A stretch of DNA of 14,423 bases from a virus (lineage: Duplodnaviria > Heunggongvirae > Uroviricota > Caudoviricetes). Position numbers and translations under genes: made by a program. How positions within the stretch are numbered: position 1 is the stretch's first letter; each line of letters begins with the position of its first letter. A model generated the notes under the pieces. That model did not search any database. It was given only the letters and a program-made list of their open reading frames with translations, and had not been told where the DNA came from. Positions 3,200 to 14,423 of this stretch are shown one piece after another. The stretch is taken from the IMG/VR virus record IMGVR_UViG_2531839179_000017; one strand, given 5' to 3'.

Positions 3200-3244
3200 G
3201 CTTATTTTTTCGCCAGATTATTTTTCAAAAAATTCCCGTGCATA

Positions 3245-3310
3245 AAAATTTGAGGAGGCGGTCGGTGCCCGGCGGGGTCGGGTTTGTCCTGAAAACGCCC
3301 CCCACCCCGT
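3245..3310. other. Candidate cos / packaging-initiation region in the HNH-terS gap
   Basis: About 290-bp gap between HNH stop (3489) and terS start (3199) containing a GC-rich block GAGGAGGCGGTCGGTGCCCGGCGGGGTCGGG flanked by AT-rich runs. In HK97-like cos phages the cos site lies between the HNH gene and terS. Position-based inference only. Confidence 0.3.
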
Positions 3311-3488
3311 CATACAGCCTCATCAGCGATTGCGGAAACATTCCATAACCTCGCGGTCACGGTCGGTTAATCGCTTCGCTGTGATGCGTTCTGCGCGTCC
3401 TGACGCTTTATCTTTATGCCCTGTTTCCTGTGTCTTCCATGCGTCACGCTGCCTTATAAGTCCACGGATAAGGCGGTTTTGTTCCCGC

Positions 3489-6381: not shown

Positions 6382-7539
6382 TTAATCGTCGTCCTGTGGC
6401 AGTTCCAGAATCTTGATCGCGTTCGAATCCACCACGCCACCGCCTAAATATTTCTGCGTGAAAATTTTGATGAAGCCCGGCTCTGTGAGGTTGTCCGGTC
6501 TGGTGCGAACACCTGTTTCGTGATCAACAATGTAGTAACCGCGTTTGAAGTCACCCAGGGCAATAACGTTATCAGGCATAAACTCCAGATATTCGACCGG
6601 AAGGCCCAGCAACGTATCAGGATCACCCGCCTGTAAACGGTCGCGCCAGATGTAATCACCGTTCGCGTTCTTCACCTTCTGAAGTTTTGCCGCCGTCGTG
6701 GAGTTAACCACCCAGACCGCGTTTTTGCGGTATTTTTTACGTAATGCAAATTTCAGATCGATCAGCGGGTCCGCAGATGTCCACGCCAGAGATTCGGAAG
6801 GTTTAATTACCTGCAACGTACCAAAATCACGCTCTTTGTCGTTCTTCTCTGCACGGGGTACGGATAAAAAACCTTTTGCTTTTTTGTCACCGTCGCCCAC
6901 AACCAGATCGCTTTCTTCGGTTTCCGTGAAGGTGTCGCCAATCTCACCCGTCAGCCATGAAAGGATGTCCACATCGGAAAAATCCACGATTTCCTGTGTG
7001 GTGCGCGGGTACGCATAGACCGGATACAGCTTAATGCTCACCTCGTTAATCTGCGGGGTGCTGGTCTGTTCGCGTGTCTTACCCTCTTCACCGTGGTTAA
7101 CGGTCGCACCGCCAGCGGAAACAAGCTGCTTAAACTCGTTGCTGCTGATTTTCTTCACGGTACAGATGCGGCGCATGGTGGATTCATCCGTCAGCATTCG
7201 CATGATTTCGGTGTTCAGTTCGGGGATAACGGTATAACCACCATCAGCGGGAACGCCTGTACTTAATGCGCGGGTTTCACCTGTCAGAATGTAGTTGCGT
7301 AGTTCTGCGGGGTCAGTGGTCTGGCTGCTTTTACCTGGCTTGCTGCGCTCTTCGTCTGCAATGGCTTCAAGGCGGGAAATGTCTTTATCGAGGGATTCAG
7401 CTTTAGCGCGTAATTCGTCAAATTTTGCGCCCTCAGCATCGTTAAGACTGCGGTTTTCTTTTTCCGCGTTCTCCAGCATGTCGCGCATCTGATTTTTAAT
7501 GGCGGTTTTCTGCTGGCGTAATTCGATTATTCTCGGCAT
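6382..7539 (-). CDS. Major capsid protein (HK97 fold) with N-terminal coiled-coil delta/scaffold domain
   Basis: 385-aa ORF, ATG at 7539 with AGGA about 9 nt upstream; charged coiled-coil N-terminus of about 100 aa followed by an HK97-like capsid body. Confidence 0.85.
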   Translation of the reverse strand: MPRIIELRQQKTAIKNQMRDMLENAEKENRSLNDAEGAKFDELRAKAESLDKDISRLEAIADEERSKPGKSSQTTDPAELRNYILTGETRALSTGVPADGGYTVIPELNTEIMRMLTDESTMRRICTVKKISSNEFKQLVSAGGATVNHGEEGKTREQTSTPQINEVSIKLYPVYAYPRTTQEIVDFSDVDILSWLTGEIGDTFTETEESDLVVGDGDKKAKGFLSVPRAEKNDKERDFGTLQVIKPSESLAWTSADPLIDLKFALRKKYRKNAVWVVNSTTAAKLQKVKNANGDYIWRDRLQAGDPDTLLGLPVEYLEFMPDNVIALGDFKRGYYIVDHETGVRTRPDNLTEPGFIKIFTQKYLGGGVVDSNAIKILELPQDDD

Positions 7540-7546
7540 AAAAAAA

Positions 7547-7576
7547 GTCCTGGGGTTAAGTAAGGAACTCCAGGAC
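7547..7576 (-). promoter_or_regulatory. Hairpin in the capsid leader that sequesters the Shine-Dalgarno; attenuator-like
   Basis: On the mRNA strand: GUCCUGG, 16-nt loop, CCAGGAC, then U7, then AUG (7539). The AGGA ribosome-binding site lies in the 3' arm of the stem and the U-run runs into the start codon. Confidence 0.4.
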
Positions 7577-7628
7577 GCGGCAAAAACTCAACCGTTTTTC
7601 ATAAGGAAATCAGTAATCGCACCGATCG

Positions 7629-7678
7629 TTTTCCCGCCTGGTAATGAATATTGGCGAGCACATTAACAGGCGGGAAAA
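7629..7678. promoter_or_regulatory. Perfect 12-bp inverted repeat (TTTTCCCGCCTG ... CAGGCGGGAAAA) with 26-bp spacer upstream of the capsid operon
   Basis: Exact 12/12 complementarity at 7629-7640 and 7667-7678, in the 290-bp gap between the early operon terminator and the capsid gene. Confidence 0.5.
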
Positions 7679-7795
7679 TGGCCCCAGCGTCCTGGCACCA
7701 CGGGCGAGAATAATCATGATTCAGGTCGGGTAAAATATGCCGTTCCGGTCAGCGAGCAACGTGGAACAACCACGAACAAATAATTTACAAAACAT

Positions 7796-7820
7796 GACAA
7801 AAAGCCGGATTGCTCCGGCT
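7796..7820 (-). terminator. Rho-independent terminator ending the early/replication operon
   Basis: Minus-strand RNA: AGCCGGA-GCAA-UCCGGCU followed by UUUUUGUCAUGUUUU, beginning 6 nt after the TAA stop (7827-7829) of the PerC-like gene. Confidence 0.7.
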
Positions 7821-7826
7821 GTGTGA

Positions 7827-8099
7827 TTATCTGTCCTGGTAATTTCGCCATATTTCATCGCTTACACCATCTATACCCATTTCAGCATAAGTGCGATCTA
7901 CTGCCTTTCTCAGGTCTCCGAAGTTATCCGGCGGCTCCGGTGGCTTCTGTGCCTTCCTGGAACATTCCAGCCGTCGCATCGTAACCTGATGCCGTTCCTT
8001 GTCTGTCTCCACCAGCAGCATGACTTCACCCCATCGCGCCGCCGCCCTCCGGTAAAAGCCTTTCGCCTCGAGTTCTTCCGCTATGCGGTCATGTACCAT
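7827..8099 (-). CDS. PerC-family-like small transcriptional regulator
   Basis: Start chosen at ATG 8099 (MVHDRIAEELEAKGFYRRAAARWGEV...) with GAGGGGG 5 nt upstream; the track's longer ORF starts at a GTG inside the ssb gene. The AE.LE.KG..RRAA.RW motif matches my recollection of PerC/Pch-type activators (recall only). Confidence 0.45.
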   Translation of the reverse strand: MVHDRIAEELEAKGFYRRAAARWGEVMLLVETDKERHQVTMRRLECSRKAQKPPEPPDNFGDLRKAVDRTYAEMGIDGVSDEIWRNYQDR

Positions 8100-8109
8100 C
8101 GCCACCCCC

Positions 8110-8520
8110 TCAGAACGGAATACCGTCACCGTAAGGGTCATCGCCTCCCGCTGGTGGCTGATTACCCTGTGTGCCTGTGGTTTTGCGTCTGTTCCCGCCA
8201 GGACGTGCCGCACGGGCACTGATTACGCTGTCTGCAATAACCTGATAACCCTGCCGCGTTTCCCCGTTCTGTCCGGTCCACTGGCTGACCTGCATCGTGC
8301 CGGATACGCTGGCAACGTCGCCTTTTTGATGTTTAGCCAGGAAGTCGGCCTGCTTACCAAATGCGATGACCGATAGCCATAACGTAGCCTGCCCATCCTG
8401 CGCCTGACTACATGGCAACGATACCGCCATACGTGCCAGCGTCATTGGTGTGCCCTTGCTGGTCTGTTTTACCTGCGGGTCGTCCACCAGCCGCCCGTAA
8501 GCTGCTATCTGTGCTGTCAT
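8110..8520 (-). CDS. ssb: Single-stranded DNA-binding protein
   Basis: 136-aa ORF, ATG at 8520 overlapping the upstream stop as ATGA; OB-fold-like core (LWLSVIAFGKQADFLAKHQKGDVASVSGTMQVSQW), Gly/Pro-rich linker and acidic C-terminal tail ending DDPYGDGIPF, the classic SSB tip. Confidence 0.8.
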   Translation of the reverse strand: MTAQIAAYGRLVDDPQVKQTSKGTPMTLARMAVSLPCSQAQDGQATLWLSVIAFGKQADFLAKHQKGDVASVSGTMQVSQWTGQNGETRQGYQVIADSVISARAARPGGNRRKTTGTQGNQPPAGGDDPYGDGIPF

Positions 8521-8769: not shown

Positions 8770-8975
8770 TGCCCACCTCTACCCACTTTTTTCGCCCACT
8801 TTTTACGTTTTCCCACTTCGTCCAACGTGGGAAATTTGGGATTTATATCATCTTGTTTCATAGGTATTTTTTTAGTGCCCACTTTTTGGGATATATACAC
8901 GTGGGAAAGTGGGTAATTTTGTTAAAATTCCGTTAAATCGCCCACCTTTCCCACTTTTAATGCCCACTTTTTACA
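8770..8975. repeat. Iteron cluster with AT-rich spacer: putative replication origin
   Basis: At least nine direct copies of a CCCAC(T)nTTT-type motif (for example GCCCACTTTTT at 8794, 8877 and 8962; CCCACTTTT at 8782 and 8950) plus inverted copies (GTGGGAAA at 8827 and 8901), interrupted by AT-rich stretches at 8838-8876; immediately 3' of the replicative ATPase gene. Confidence 0.7.
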
Positions 8976-10371
8976 GTGGTCCTACATCATCACCGTCAAT
9001 GTAGATCACGTCGTCTTTTTCCAGTTTGGCTAACCATCGTTTAAGGTGTTTTGTGTCATACCCCAGCTTTTTCATATCGTCACGTAACAGCGGGATCGTG
9101 CACTTGTCGCCGTGCTGTGTGCGTGAACGTATGCATCCCCATAGCGCGGTATGGTTTTCCGTCTTGTTGCCTGCCTCCTCGATGCGCTCCAGTTCAACGG
9201 GAGGGCGCGGCTTATCCACCACCACCAGCGACGTGATTAATTCACCGTCAGCGTCGGTAAAAAGCTCCACCACGCGTAAGTCATATGCGGCTTCTTTGAG
9301 TTCCTCCGCGTCCTTCATTTTGGTGCATGAGATAACCAGCGCTTCGCTTCCTGCGTCCTCCCTGCGTATCCGGTATTCAGCATCCAGCGAAGCACGAAAT
9401 GCACTGGAACCGCGCGCGCCTTTCGTCTCATCCTTGCCGGAATGGTGAACCACCAGCACCGTGGCCCCTGTGCGTCGTTTCAGTTCGTCACAACCACGGA
9501 TAAACGCCCCCATATCACGGGAATCATTTTCATCATTCCCACCAAAGCAACGCGCCAGCGTATCCAGAATAATCATGCGTACAGGTTTACCCGTTTCCCG
9601 CTCCACCTGACGGGCAGCGATAACCATTTCATCAACATCAAGCGGGGCAGCCGGAAAGATGGGGCGGTTTACCAGATACAGATTTTTCACCTGCTCATCG
9701 TGCACAACCTCCCAGGCTTTTACACGACGCGGAACACCTATACCGCCTTCACCAACCACATAGAGAACCGCACCATGTGCAACCCTGCGGCCTCCCCACT
9801 GGCGACCAGTGGCAACATGGCACGCCCACGATCCGGCAAGGAATGATTTATAGGACCCGCTAGCCCCGTATATGCTGCATAGCGATACCGCCGGAATAAT
9901 CCCCTTAACCACGTAATCCAGTTGCGTGTCGTATCCGGTAGATCCAACGCTCATCGGTAGCGTGGTTTTTCGCTGGTGGTTTTTTTCTTCCGCCGGCTCT
10001 TTCCCGCGCACCCGTTCCAGGTATTCGCGCCAGTTCTCCCGCATATGGCTGTGCATCCCTTCGGGGTAATAATTCGCATCAGTTACACCCGCCGCCGCCA
10101 GCTTGTGCGCAATGGCATTAATATTTGATGGCCTGATGTGGCCTGCCTTGTACAGCCGGACACAATAGCGCCCCTCGTCGATGATTCTCAGGTCTGCCAG
10201 TTCATCCAGTTGATCATCAGCCAGCACAACGGGAGGCACATTATCGCCAGCCAGTCGCCCGTCCTGTTCCTGCCACTGTTTCGCATGTGCCCAGGCATCA
10301 CTACCCGCAAAAATAATGACTTCGGTCATCTTGTCGTAAGGCTGTTTTTTTAAGTTCGGTGCGCTTTTCAT
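8971..10371 (-). CDS. Replication initiator ATPase/helicase (RecA-like, AAA_25/RepA-type) with C-terminal winged-helix-like region
   Basis: 466-aa ORF, ATG at 10371 overlapping the upstream stop (ATGA); Walker A GASGSYKS, Walker B-like RMIILDTLARCF, conserved VLVVHHSGKD...GARGSSA block typical of RepA/DnaB-like RecA-fold replicative ATPases. Confidence 0.8.
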   Translation of the reverse strand: MKSAPNLKKQPYDKMTEVIIFAGSDAWAHAKQWQEQDGRLAGDNVPPVVLADDQLDELADLRIIDEGRYCVRLYKAGHIRPSNINAIAHKLAAAGVTDANYYPEGMHSHMRENWREYLERVRGKEPAEEKNHQRKTTLPMSVGSTGYDTQLDYVVKGIIPAVSLCSIYGASGSYKSFLAGSWACHVATGRQWGGRRVAHGAVLYVVGEGGIGVPRRVKAWEVVHDEQVKNLYLVNRPIFPAAPLDVDEMVIAARQVERETGKPVRMIILDTLARCFGGNDENDSRDMGAFIRGCDELKRRTGATVLVVHHSGKDETKGARGSSAFRASLDAEYRIRREDAGSEALVISCTKMKDAEELKEAAYDLRVVELFTDADGELITSLVVVDKPRPPVELERIEEAGNKTENHTALWGCIRSRTQHGDKCTIPLLRDDMKKLGYDTKHLKRWLAKLEKDDVIYIDGDDVGPL

Positions 10372-11129: not shown

Positions 11130-11343
11130 AACCCCCCCCATTTTCACAATCAGCAACAAGAATATTTTTAGCGTCATTCAGCGACCGCGTTGCGATGTAT
11201 CGGATACATTCCAGGGCGAACAATGTGTATTCCTCCCGTTCTTCCTTTTGTGCAAGCTCTGCCGTGCATTCAATATCAATAAGCGCATGCATCAGCGTAG
11301 TGAGTGCGGCGGCGGCTGCGTCCGGACGGATGTTATTGCACAT
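11122..11343 (-). CDS. Hypothetical small protein (paralog A)
   Basis: Start chosen at ATG 11343 (MCNNIRPDAAAAALTTLMHALIDIECTAE...) with GGAGGGG 6 nt upstream, overlapping the upstream stop; C-terminus ENGGGYA is encoded through the G8 tract. Confidence 0.5.
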   Translation of the reverse strand: MCNNIRPDAAAAALTTLMHALIDIECTAELAQKEEREEYTLFALECIRYIATRSLNDAKNILVADCENGGGYA

Positions 11344-11764
11344 GGTGTACCCCTCCGCATTTTTTTTCGTTAGAAATAAGCGTTCTTCTTTCCTGTTCAT
11401 CGCTCAGGAATACGCAGACCTCACCGCTAAGGCGTTTAAGTAAGCCGATGATTGCCCCTGATTCGCTGTCGGTCATCATGCCAGGGTAATCCTCTGCCAG
11501 TGCGCAAATAACTTCGATTTGGTGGGCGCGTTCTGCTGCCTGTTGTAGTGTGATTTCCTGGCTCATAAGCCTACCCCCTTGGCGAATACGGGCAGCGAAT
11601 ACCATCACGCAGCCAGCCGGGGATTGCTGGCGTGCTTCCTGTTCGCTGGTGGCCTCAATGGTAATCACGCGCGGTTGTGCCGTGCTCAGGGCGATAAAAC
11701 GCCAGATGTATTTATTCAGGTTGTGCGAGCCCCGCCCTTGCGGGTGTGTGGTATGATTTCTCAT
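11333..11764 (-). CDS. First gene of the early operon; N-terminal Icd-like (cell-division-inhibitor-like) region plus C-terminal helical domain
   Basis: Start chosen at ATG 11764 (GAGG 6 nt upstream); the track's longer ORF starts at a TTG inside the operator. Motif YIWRFIALSTAQPRVITIEATSEQEARQ...VFAARIRQ matches my recollection of Icd-like proteins of P4-type elements (unverified). Confidence 0.5.
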   Translation of the reverse strand: MRNHTTHPQGRGSHNLNKYIWRFIALSTAQPRVITIEATSEQEARQQSPAGCVMVFAARIRQGGRLMSQEITLQQAAERAHQIEVICALAEDYPGMMTDSESGAIIGLLKRLSGEVCVFLSDEQERRTLISNEKKCGGVHHVQ

Positions 11765-11861
11765 AGCTACCTCGATACTTTCGCTATCGTTGGTGGTTAG
11801 AAGCCCGGTTAGTGTTAGCGCACTGCCGGGTTTCGTCGTTTCTGCACCTTGCGCCAACAAG

Positions 11862-11913
11862 GTGTTGAACACCAATTTAAACCCAGGTGTTAAACACGTC
11901 AAGTGTTGAACAC
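11862..11913. promoter_or_regulatory. Triple palindromic operator (GTGTT-N-AACAC) spanning divergent promoters
   Basis: O1 GGTGTTGAACACC (11861-11873), O2 GTGTTAAACAC (11887-11897), O3 AGTGTTGAACACT (11902-11914). Minus-strand promoter candidate: -35 TTGACG (11902-11897), 17-bp spacer, -10 TAAATT (11879-11874), with O1 at the start site. Plus-strand promoter candidate: -35 TTGAAC inside O3, -10 CATACT (11928-11933). Confidence 0.65.
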
Positions 11914-12831: not shown

Positions 12832-12990
12832 TATTGCCCCCTTTCGTTTCTTAAAGAGTTATTTCGTGTTCTATTGCGTTGGGATGTGTCTGATTGTGTC
12901 AGGATGATTCAGAGTTGGCAAATGTTGAGGTCGTATGGTTTACAGAAACAGGAATAATCAGGATAAAATCATTTAAATTCATGTTAATAC

Positions 12991-13022
12991 AAAGGCATAA
13001 AATATTGTTTCATGCCTTTTTT
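12991..13022. terminator. Hairpin with flanking T-run between int and alpA; possible terminator or insulator
   Basis: AAAGGCAT, 11-13-nt loop, ATGCCTTT, followed by TTTTCTC on the plus strand; on the minus strand the stem is followed by a broken U-run. Large loop, so weak. Confidence 0.25.
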
Positions 13023-13205
13023 CTCGCTATTTAAAGAGTGATTCGCTAGTGTATAAAAAACCAGTAACACATTAAAAATCAGCCACTTATAAATCCGTAC
13101 ACTTTTTCGCCTCTTGTTCGTAGTTGTTCCGCATTGTTGCTCATTGTTGCATGTTGTATCTGTTCGCATATCCAGTATGCGCATACTGAAAAAACACGAA
13201 AAAAA

Positions 13206-14423
13206 TTATTTTCTTCTGGCTACTGGTAGCGTGGTTACGTTTTCATGTGTTCCCGCCAGTATCCCTAACCGCTCCGTCCACATATCCAGCGCATTGCGTT
13301 TAGCATCCAGATAACGGGAATGATTATAAACTCGCTGCATTCCTGGCATCTGGTGGCCTGTAAGCTGCTCCACGACATGCGGATCAACGCCTAAATCGTT
13401 CAGCATGGTTGTAAAGGTGCGCCGGATGTCATGCAGTGACCAGTGAGGATGATTAAGCCTCCTGTGCGCTAATCTTCCATACTGCGATACGCTGGCCTCC
13501 TGTTTCACTTCCCCCAGCAATAAGCCCGTGTGCCTGTTCTGCTCCACCAGCTGCGTGACGAACGGCAGGATCGCTTCCGGTATGGGCCGGAATATTGCGA
13601 CCTTCGTTTTGCTGTGCTCCTTCGGAACGGTCCATAGCATTTCCGTGAAATCCCACTCCCCGATCTCCGATAACCTCAGTTCTACCGTTCTGGCTCCGAA
13701 GACAATCAGGAGGCGGATTAACGCGACGTAGTAAGGGGAGAATATTTTTTTGTCCAGTGCCTGCAATAATTCGCCAAGTTCTTTGTTACTTAAGACACGT
13801 TCGCTTATATCCGGTTTTTTCCCAACGTCCGCCACGTTCAGATCGTCCAGAACGTTGCTGATTGCATAGCGCCGCCTACGGCAGAACTTAAGCGCCTGTT
13901 TGCACGCCTGTAGCACGAATCCGGCAGTAACAGGCGTTCGCTTTGCCACCTGGTCAAAACAGGCCAGCCAGTGCCGTAGCTCGCATTTATCCAGCGGCAT
14001 AGCACCAATCTGCTGTATTACGTGATTATTAAGTCGCCTTTTCAGGGCGATATAATCCACGCGGTTTTCCTTTACGTAATACTCAAGCCAGTAGGTGAGC
14101 GCATCGCCAACCGTTACCGGCTTTAACGCTTCCTGTACGGTGTAATTAAGCTCATGACGTGGATTTTTCCCCTCTGCCAGCCATGCGCGACACTGGGCGG
14201 CTTTTTCCCTGGCTGATTTCAGGCTCAGATCAGGATAACTTCCCAGCTTAATGCGTTCGGGTCGTGTCTCCCTTCCCGTTCCGGCCCTGTATGTGAAATA
14301 CCAGGTCAATTTCCCTGATGTTAAATATTTCACGCTCAGGTTTCCGCCATCACTATAAAACGTGTTTTTCTCCGCTGGCTTACCATGAAGTTTCCTTAGC
14401 AAGGTATCGCTCAGTTTGTTCAT
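13206..14423 (-). CDS. int: Site-specific tyrosine integrase (P4/CP4-57-type, N-terminal arm-binding domain)
   Basis: 405-aa ORF with ATG at the last window base (14423-14421); N-terminal DUF4102-like region (KLTWYFTYRAGTGRETRPERIKLGSYPDLSLKSAREKA), C-terminal catalytic region with HDIRRTF...LTGHQ...RVYNHSRYL (R-H-R-Y signature). Confidence 0.9.
   Translation of the reverse strand: MNKLSDTLLRKLHGKPAEKNTFYSDGGNLSVKYLTSGKLTWYFTYRAGTGRETRPERIKLGSYPDLSLKSAREKAAQCRAWLAEGKNPRHELNYTVQEALKPVTVGDALTYWLEYYVKENRVDYIALKRRLNNHVIQQIGAMPLDKCELRHWLACFDQVAKRTPVTAGFVLQACKQALKFCRRRRYAISNVLDDLNVADVGKKPDISERVLSNKELGELLQALDKKIFSPYYVALIRLLIVFGARTVELRLSEIGEWDFTEMLWTVPKEHSKTKVAIFRPIPEAILPFVTQLVEQNRHTGLLLGEVKQEASVSQYGRLAHRRLNHPHWSLHDIRRTFTTMLNDLGVDPHVVEQLTGHQMPGMQRVYNHSRYLDAKRNALDMWTERLGILAGTHENVTTLPVARRK

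Follow-up and report, generated by a model that had tools for sequence, protein, structure and literature searches.

We analyzed the leader of the packaging operon in the window, a 14,423-nt viral record (IMG/VR IMGVR_UViG_2531839179_000017) that, judged by its genes, is an Escherichia coli capsid-forming phage-inducible chromosomal island (cf-PICI) of the EcCIEDL933 type. Our main reading, to which we give a probability of about 0.6, is that two hairpins upstream of the capsid start codon, denoted P4 and P2, are helices of a folded mRNA leader of ∼200 nt that keeps the capsid operon shut until induction. P4 buries the Shine–Dalgarno sequence (SD), and P2 is built on a long inverted repeat. 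We place the leader among the folded regulatory mRNA leaders, as a member of that class that has not been described before, and comparison of related islands gives good support for its predicted structure and for a two-state design.

cf-PICIs build their own capsids and take only the tails from helper phages. In the searchable cf-PICI literature, AlpA is the master switch, and we found no description of this leader or of packaging-operon control. If our reading is correct, a dedicated promoter active in uninduced cells, combined with a conserved leader that buries the ribosome-binding site (RBS) would explain how a lysogen-like cell avoids making capsids, and the same arrangement would show where induction must act. 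Few structured cis-regulatory RNAs are known from phage satellites, and the leader is a well-supported candidate to join them.

Gene content of the island

The minus strand carries every gene of the window (Table 1), and gene order and annotation agree with those of EcCIEDL933-type islands. The packaging operon runs in the order capsid, protease, portal, head closure protein, head–tail connector, HNH, TerS, and TerL. A 551-nt query spanning the leader (7400–7950) matched 443 complete E. coli genomes, and a copy with 99.8% identity (L001) had the same gene order as the window.

Table 1. Coordinates of genes and leader features in the window
Feature	Position	Strand	Details
Integrase	13206–14423	−	
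AlpA, 62 residues	12643–12831	−	PF05930
Small proteins	between AlpA and primase/AAA in gene order	−	
Primase/AAA protein	8971–10371	−	
SSB	8110–8520	−	
PerC-family protein	7827–8099	−	
Intrinsic terminator ending the early operon, 3′ of the PerC gene	7796–7820	−	called by scan: 7-bp stem, 5 G-C pairs, T run
Invariant TGTAAAT box	7783–7789	−	−45 to −39 from the mapped start
Promoter for the mapped start	7751–7779	−	−35 TTGTTC (7779–7774), 17-nt spacer, −10 CTCGCT (7756–7751)
Position equivalent to the mapped start	7744	−	transferred from EDL933 1687918; 5′ UTR ∼205 nt
CGGCAUA near the 5′ end of the transcript	7742–7736	−	complementary to UAUGCCG (7540–7534)
Second promoter-like element	7707–7734	−	TTTACC, 16 nt, TATTCT; predicted start is the first base of P1
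GAUUAUUCUCG	7705–7715	−	complementary to capsid codons 2–5 (7535–7525); A/U-rich
P1 hairpin	7678–7701	−	GUGGUG-CCAG-GACG-CUGG-G-GCCAU
Competing helix, 5′ strand CCAGGACGC	7687–7695	−	candidate anti-sequestor or antiterminator; P1 loop region
P2 long hairpin	7629–7678	−	arms 7678–7661/7646–7629, loop 7660–7647
Competing helix, 3′ strand GCGUCCUGG	7570–7578	−	covers the entire P4 5′ arm
P4, SD-sequestering hairpin	7547–7576	−	AGGA SD at 7551–7548
U7 tract, candidate terminator tail	7540–7546	−	7–8 U in every E. coli-type leader
Major capsid gene	6382–7539	−	first gene of the packaging operon

Several minor features of the island were noted outside of the leader. A 66-codon ORF with a weak treble-clef (DUF2116) match lies between the integrase gene and alpA (12984–13184, minus strand); in L001 there is no annotated gene in this gap. 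On the plus strand, positions 11765–11837 weakly resemble the SymR antitoxin RNA (33.3 bits, E = 0.0044; the gathering score, which the match does not reach, is 61). This stretch is antisense to the 5′ portion of a 189-codon ORF (11333–11902), and the two may make up a type I toxin–antitoxin pair within the island's early region. In the O157:H7 copies (F7349, L002 1593–1973; EDL933, L215 7452–7832), the stretch from perC to the leader additionally holds a gene for a hypothetical protein of 74 residues and a fragment of a trigger-factor pseudogene, which fit the described hotspot of variable accessory or immunity genes just 5′ of the packaging module. A non-coding gap is found 5′ of terS, at about 3200–3320, where a cos site would be expected if packaging is HNH-dependent.

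Transcription of the capsid operon

An earlier note on this DNA, made from the sequence alone, had suggested that a terminator ends the early operon and that the morphogenesis operon is gated separately; both the terminator and the separation were borne out. The terminator consists of a stem (7820–7803) followed by a T run (−13.2 kcal/mol), and the terminator scan calls it in the window and at the same post-perC site in EDL933. Furthermore, a Cappable-seq study of EDL933 without induction (PMC10469882, Table S5), with NZ_CP008957 as the mapping reference, reported a single capsid-gene start, at 1687918, in seven out of eight conditions. The EDL933 capsid ATG is at 1688124, giving a 5′ UTR of 206 nt; the start is 3′ of the perC-side terminator and 43 nt 5′ of P1. 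The EDL933 copy is 96%–97% identical to the window. The operon thus has its own promoter, active without induction, in EDL933 and, by correspondence of sequence, presumably in the window too. Since this promoter fires in uninduced EDL933 cells, anything that blocks the synthesis of capsids must do so after initiation. Since the start is 5′ of both the hairpin and the inverted repeat that the earlier note had pointed out, the whole region lies inside the primary transcript.

The geometry of the promoter in the window was taken from the EDL933 start site. The EDL933 promoter is TTGTTC-N17-TTCACT, and the −10 hexamer of the window, CTCGCT, lacks the A at −11. The promoter scan calls neither of these weak hexamers in the window or in EDL933. 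Among E. coli copies the −10 hexamer is polymorphic (TTCACT, TTCATT, TTCGCT, and CTCGCT), with the form in the window being the weakest, and the window copy may transcribe the capsid operon less from this promoter. The window has one copy of the TGTAAAT box. All 105 distinct promoter regions contain the box, 86–88 nt 5′ of P1, and it is where sequence homology between islands starts. Following the box in the window are three TGTTC-like repeats (7754–7789, minus strand; at 7777, 7767, and 7757) with a period of 10–11 nt, which provide the −35, spacer, and −10 of the mapped promoter. In other lineages a terminator hairpin replaces the repeats, and its U tract overlaps a −35-like TTTTCT (L004 2308–2328).

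A second promoter-like element, TTTACC-N16-TATTCT, is more widely conserved than the mapped promoter: Its hexamers and 16-nt spacing are constant in all lineages and its spacer sequence is variable. The promoter scan calls it in L055. The element was ruled out as the mapped start site of EDL933, the actual start being 43 nt further 5′, and no start was reported at the element in the uninduced EDL933 Cappable-seq data. Its role may be that of a promoter specific to induction or of a sigma-dependent pause site.

Among staphylococcal satellites, operon I of SaPIs is a packaging module with its own promoter, controlled by LexA. The packaging module studied here is likewise controlled apart from the early genes, but the control appears to be exerted after initiation, at the RNA level, and no LexA box was seen by eye between the promoter and P1.

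A predicted leader fold and its competing helix

Collecting the DNA 5′ of capsid homologs (62%–100% protein identity) in genomes, metagenomes, and viral contigs gave 199 leaders, of which 153 were distinct. About 175 leaders shared the same plan, composed of the TGTAAAT box, promoter-like hexamers, P1, an adjoining P2, a linker, and P4 with the SD. The fold of the whole 307-nt intergenic RNA has a z-score of −5.6, and P1, P2, and P4 together make up the minimum-energy fold in six out of seven leaders tested. Rfam gave no match to the leader at E-values up to 1 in the window and six related loci.

The pairing of P1 (−14.4 kcal/mol, with a GACG loop) is conserved: When 33 representative leaders were aligned without bias by MAFFT, 99% of its cells were paired and five out of nine pairs showed compensatory changes. 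RNAalifold recovered P1 independently, and P1 alone (the 3′ arms of P2 are left unaligned by MAFFT). Each locus has a single copy of the motif, invariably on the sense strand and 110–165 nt 5′ of the capsid ATG; across 1.26 Mb of fetched DNA it was confined to sites upstream of capsid genes.

P4 was found as the earlier note had described it, on the minus strand, with AGGA in the stem and U7 after it. GUCCUGG (7576–7570) pairs with CCAGGAC (7553–7547), followed by the U tract (7546–7540) and the AUG (7539–7537). Beyond one A·C mismatch the stem gains three further pairs, for a total of 10 (arms 7576–7566/7557–7547, 8-nt loop). It is stable (−14.1 kcal/mol, z = −4.85), with none of 200 shuffles reaching its stability, and variants in other E. 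coli copies mostly retain the pairing. The calculated probability of an unpaired SD was 0.00 for the window and no more than 0.01 for the transcript of EDL933. Among seven leaders folded, the core SD bases had values of 0.00–0.01 in five and higher values in the other two, L061 (0.05–0.23) and L087 (0.08–0.58).

Sequestration of the SD is maintained through changes of sequence, by GUCCUGG/CCAGGAC, by UGGUUUC/GAAACCA, and, in a third and sequence-unrelated type of leader, by the 5′ head, which pairs with the SD around a central 14-bp hairpin. A fourth type found in relatives is short and unstructured and has no such element. The 5′ head of the window's own leader also has segments complementary to the start of the capsid gene (Table 1). 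These head-to-start-codon pairings appear in minimum-energy folds, including that of the mapped transcript, and pairings of at least 8 nt were found in 74% of leaders versus 28% of shuffles, which is weak evidence for such A/U-rich sequences. In the lambda cIII mRNA and the MS2 maturation-gene leader, the SD and AUG are hidden in one fold and free in the other, with the choice between them set by a complementary sequence upstream. The satellite leader would resemble these in its alternative folds and has no sequence relationship to them; Rfam Lambda_thermo gave no match in the leader.

Evidence of a second state came from a 9-nt perfect complementarity, overlooked by the earlier note, between CCAGGACGC in P1 and GCGUCCUGG at P4. 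This competing helix is present in all 81 distinct combinations of P1 and tail. Its core (alignment columns 11–15 with 152–156) is paired in 33 out of 33 sequences, and over 12 columns 82% of cells are paired versus 21%–51% when the partner is slid, with five pairs changed on both sides. Columns 15 and 152 form U-A in 27 sequences, C-G in three, and G-C in three, and columns 10 and 15, inside P1, form A-U in 27, G-C in three, and C-G in three (the covariation of P1 and of the competing helix rests on about three clades, and statistical power is low). Column 15 appears to covary with two partners (10 and 152), the pattern expected of two helices that exclude one another. Single changes in the P1 loop (GACG to GAUG, GACG to GGCG) are still wobble-compatible with the CGUC partner. 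The core of the helix is invariant, and its flanking extension switches sides between lineages. Additional copies of CCAGGACGC elsewhere in the island, considered as candidates for action in trans, were no more frequent than expected by chance.

The conservation of the competing helix points to an RNA conformational switch. P1, bearing a copy of the RBS-arm sequence, would then act as an anti-anti-sequestor. In six out of seven leaders tested, forcing the competing helix costs 6–13 kcal/mol relative to the default fold, so that it would need a helper. We picture the following course of events. The operon would be insulated by the upstream terminator and transcribed from its own weak promoter even in uninduced cells. 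The default fold, with P1, P2, and P4, would bury the SD and, in this lineage, also the AUG; we infer repression from this burial, and likewise from P4 and U7 that many transcripts may end just before the AUG. The P1 loop and its flank (CCAGGACGC) could pair instead with the 5′ arm of P4 (GCGUCCUGG), dissolving the sequestor or terminator and exposing the RBS, with P2 serving as a sequence-free strut that brings the partners in P1 and P4 together. Expression of capsid and packaging genes would depend on an effector that tips the balance between the folds after induction.

An elaboration of this scheme, which we offer as speculation and hold to be unlikely in its full form, is that the leader is a factor-dependent RNA switch and a checkpoint coupling capsid production to induction, with an RNA-binding protein or small RNA of the island or the helper opening P1. 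In uninduced cells, the terminated leader (∼200 nt) would build up as a small RNA and possibly act in trans, as does StxS of Stx phages. A published Hfq-crosslinking supplement contained no small RNA or 3′ end at the leader locus.

The architecture is reminiscent of attenuators and riboswitch platforms of the PyrR and BglG types. As in those systems, three segments take part in mutually exclusive helices and a downstream hairpin is followed by a U run; here the hairpin also covers the RBS, and covariation supports both folds. The leader differs from them in having no conserved leader peptide, aptamer-like core, known binding protein, or Rfam match, and in having the U run in one lineage only.

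The same data could reflect a passive structured 5′ UTR that sets mRNA stability or a fixed, moderate level of capsid translation and does not switch, the complementarity of P1 and P4 being incidental or a guide to folding. The strong preference for the default fold is compatible with this, as is the occurrence of short, unstructured leaders in relatives. The search for a sensor came up empty as well: The leader alignments contained no conserved leader ORF, no conserved junction nucleotides (none beyond the helices in the 33-leader alignment), and no aptamer-like core. Moreover, overexpression of alpA alone produces EcCIEDL933 capsids (10.1101/2025.02.11.637232), as a passive leader would allow; under the switch reading, the same result implies that the effector is an island or host product acting downstream of AlpA. 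On the other hand, a passive leader does not account for a long-range complementarity that is kept in every lineage through compensatory and wobble-compatible changes, with an invariant core whose extension shifts sides, and a promoter that is active without induction needs a downstream block. We consider a passive leader rather unlikely.

Termination, candidate regulators, and the inverted repeat

The earlier note had read P4 and the U tract as a terminator or translational attenuator. Burial of the SD, conserved across three unrelated leader types, stands; the terminator reading of U7 applies to the E. coli lineage only. Within that lineage the run of seven to eight U is kept in all leaders, including the divergent L061, despite changes in neighboring bases, and P4 is similar in stability to the accepted post-perC terminator (−14.1 versus −13.2 kcal/mol). 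The terminator scan does not call P4 and U7 in the window or in EDL933, because the perfect stem has a 16-nt loop and the extended stem has a mismatch. In the larger sister lineage the hairpin is present and the U run is absent, a variable, U-poor spacer (CACUCC or similar) taking its place. A hairpin kept without the U run suggests that the shared function is more likely translational control. That SD sequestration is this shared function, and termination an added candidate layer in the E. coli lineage, strikes us as nearly an even bet, leaning slightly to the doubtful side. The C-rich linker of the sister lineage was considered as a Rho loading site and dropped, being too short at 12–18 nt.

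A terminator at this position would invite protein-mediated processive antitermination in the style of lambda and Stx PR′–tR′, in which transcription stops at P4 and U7 until a protein of the island modifies RNA polymerase, with no role for an alternative helix. The late gate of those phages (PR′, the 6S or StxS leader RNA, tR′, and Q) likewise has a promoter that is active without induction and serves a structural-gene operon, and a leader of ∼200 nt ending in a hairpin and U run before the first late gene. One report (PMC7547250) describes the Stx phage promoter as always active and terminated immediately downstream in lysogeny. The island shares the active start site and a hairpin with U7–8 about 200 nt downstream, matching the upstream terminator in energy, and AlpA of Pseudomonas aeruginosa is an antiterminator (PMC9371919). 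However, no Q-like gene was found among the genes of the window, the candidate terminator sits right against the start codon and hides the SD, the sister lineage lacks the U run, and the conserved, covarying competing helix would be left unexplained. We regard antitermination of this kind as quite improbable.

AlpA and the PerC-like protein had both been named as candidate activators; AlpA as an antiterminator and PerC as a general activator were not supported. [quoted passage not shown] Within 2.5 kb upstream, a PerC homolog was detected at 53 loci, each of them E. coli-type, and none was found at 122 out of 175 (a count limited by the sensitivity of tblastn and by the available flanks). Most of these 122 loci have the same box and leader, and ∼20 have other leader types. 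PerC is thus not co-conserved with the box and leader, and this co-occurrence test ruled it out as a general activator.

The inverted repeat of the earlier note, 12 bp and perfect with a 26-bp spacer, is real (7678–7667/7640–7629). It is the base of a longer 18-nt repeat, P2, in which 17 out of 18 positions are complementary around a 14-nt loop (−23.5 kcal/mol, z = −6.5; none of 200 shuffles was as stable). The arms are unrelated in sequence between lineages (UUUUCCCGCCUG in the window and UGUCCACCCGG, GGCCGUUUAAUC, GGCCGUCAG, UGCCGCCUGAC, GGCAGCUUACUCU, and GCCCGCCCC elsewhere), and P2 was analyzed alignment-free, MAFFT having failed to align its 3′ arms across lineages. In 91 out of 98 distinct leaders, an uninterrupted stem of 9 bp or more begins 0–3 nt after P1, compared to 10% of dinucleotide shuffles. 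Among 44 distinct arm pairs, 96.6% of cells are paired versus 26%–48% in shifted registers, and each of the first 10 positions shows three to four types of Watson–Crick pair. The non-Watson–Crick cells comprise 19 G·U and four A·C, or 14 versus none at interior positions, and the distance between the arms ranges from 8 to 49 nt. Pairing that is always kept despite lineage-specific sequence, with G·U preferred over A·C, argues for an RNA helix with freely varying sequence rather than an operator-like, protein-binding dyad. On this comparative evidence we take P2 to be a helix of the capsid-sense strand and neither a dyad nor a cos site.

A DNA-level role, with the repeat acting as a protein-bound operator, cos site, origin, or cruciform, might seem natural given that the repeat is a perfect 12-bp palindrome as DNA and that cf-PICIs use cos sites according to the literature. 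It is at odds with the wholly different arm sequences and variable spacing between lineages, with mismatches that are strand-asymmetric (G·U tolerated, A·C not), and with the location of the region within the mapped transcript. In HNH-dependent packaging systems, moreover, a cos site is expected beside terS. We judge a DNA-level role to be very improbable. Least plausible of all, and ruled out on conservation grounds, is leader-peptide attenuation, in which translation of an upstream ORF (AUG 7716, 38 codons, running through P1 and P2) would remodel the leader: The ORF does exist in the window inside the mapped transcript, but it has no SD, its start codon is lost in many lineages (CAG, GAT, or ATC there), its length varies (10 codons, 38 codons, or open-ended), and its differences in L061 are non-synonymous.

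Another system of interest is the put RNA of HK022, a cis-acting antiterminator of two stem–loops. P1 and P2 likewise adjoin each other, with 0 nt between them, near the 5′ end and upstream of a candidate terminator. The likeness is one of layout alone; the hypervariable apex and sequence of P2 are a poor fit to specific recognition by RNA polymerase.

We noted a further elaboration of P2 in the commonest sister lineage (type B leaders; e.g., L131 2384–2420), where its apex forms a three-way junction. The second arm carries a conserved GAGAG/GAGAU pentaloop followed by AAAAAG, with compensatory changes in the arm, and may be a protein-binding hairpin.

Finally, leaders of these types occur under other labels in public records (OR850982.1, LR881103.1, PQ569648.1, and CP088587.1). 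Three phage-labeled records have a sister-type leader, one of them a 16.5-kb "induced prophage" with the leader beside a capsid gene, and a 32.6-kb plasmid-labeled record contains the leader of the window itself; the phage- and plasmid-labeled records are probably cf-PICIs, alone or co-assembled. The E. coli-type leader had no match in the phage collection. Matches of the sister-type leader in that collection were confined to three records: a 3.8-kb unannotated fragment, a 106-kb phage, and the 16.5-kb induced-prophage record, where the leader lies beside the capsid gene and which may itself be a cf-PICI.
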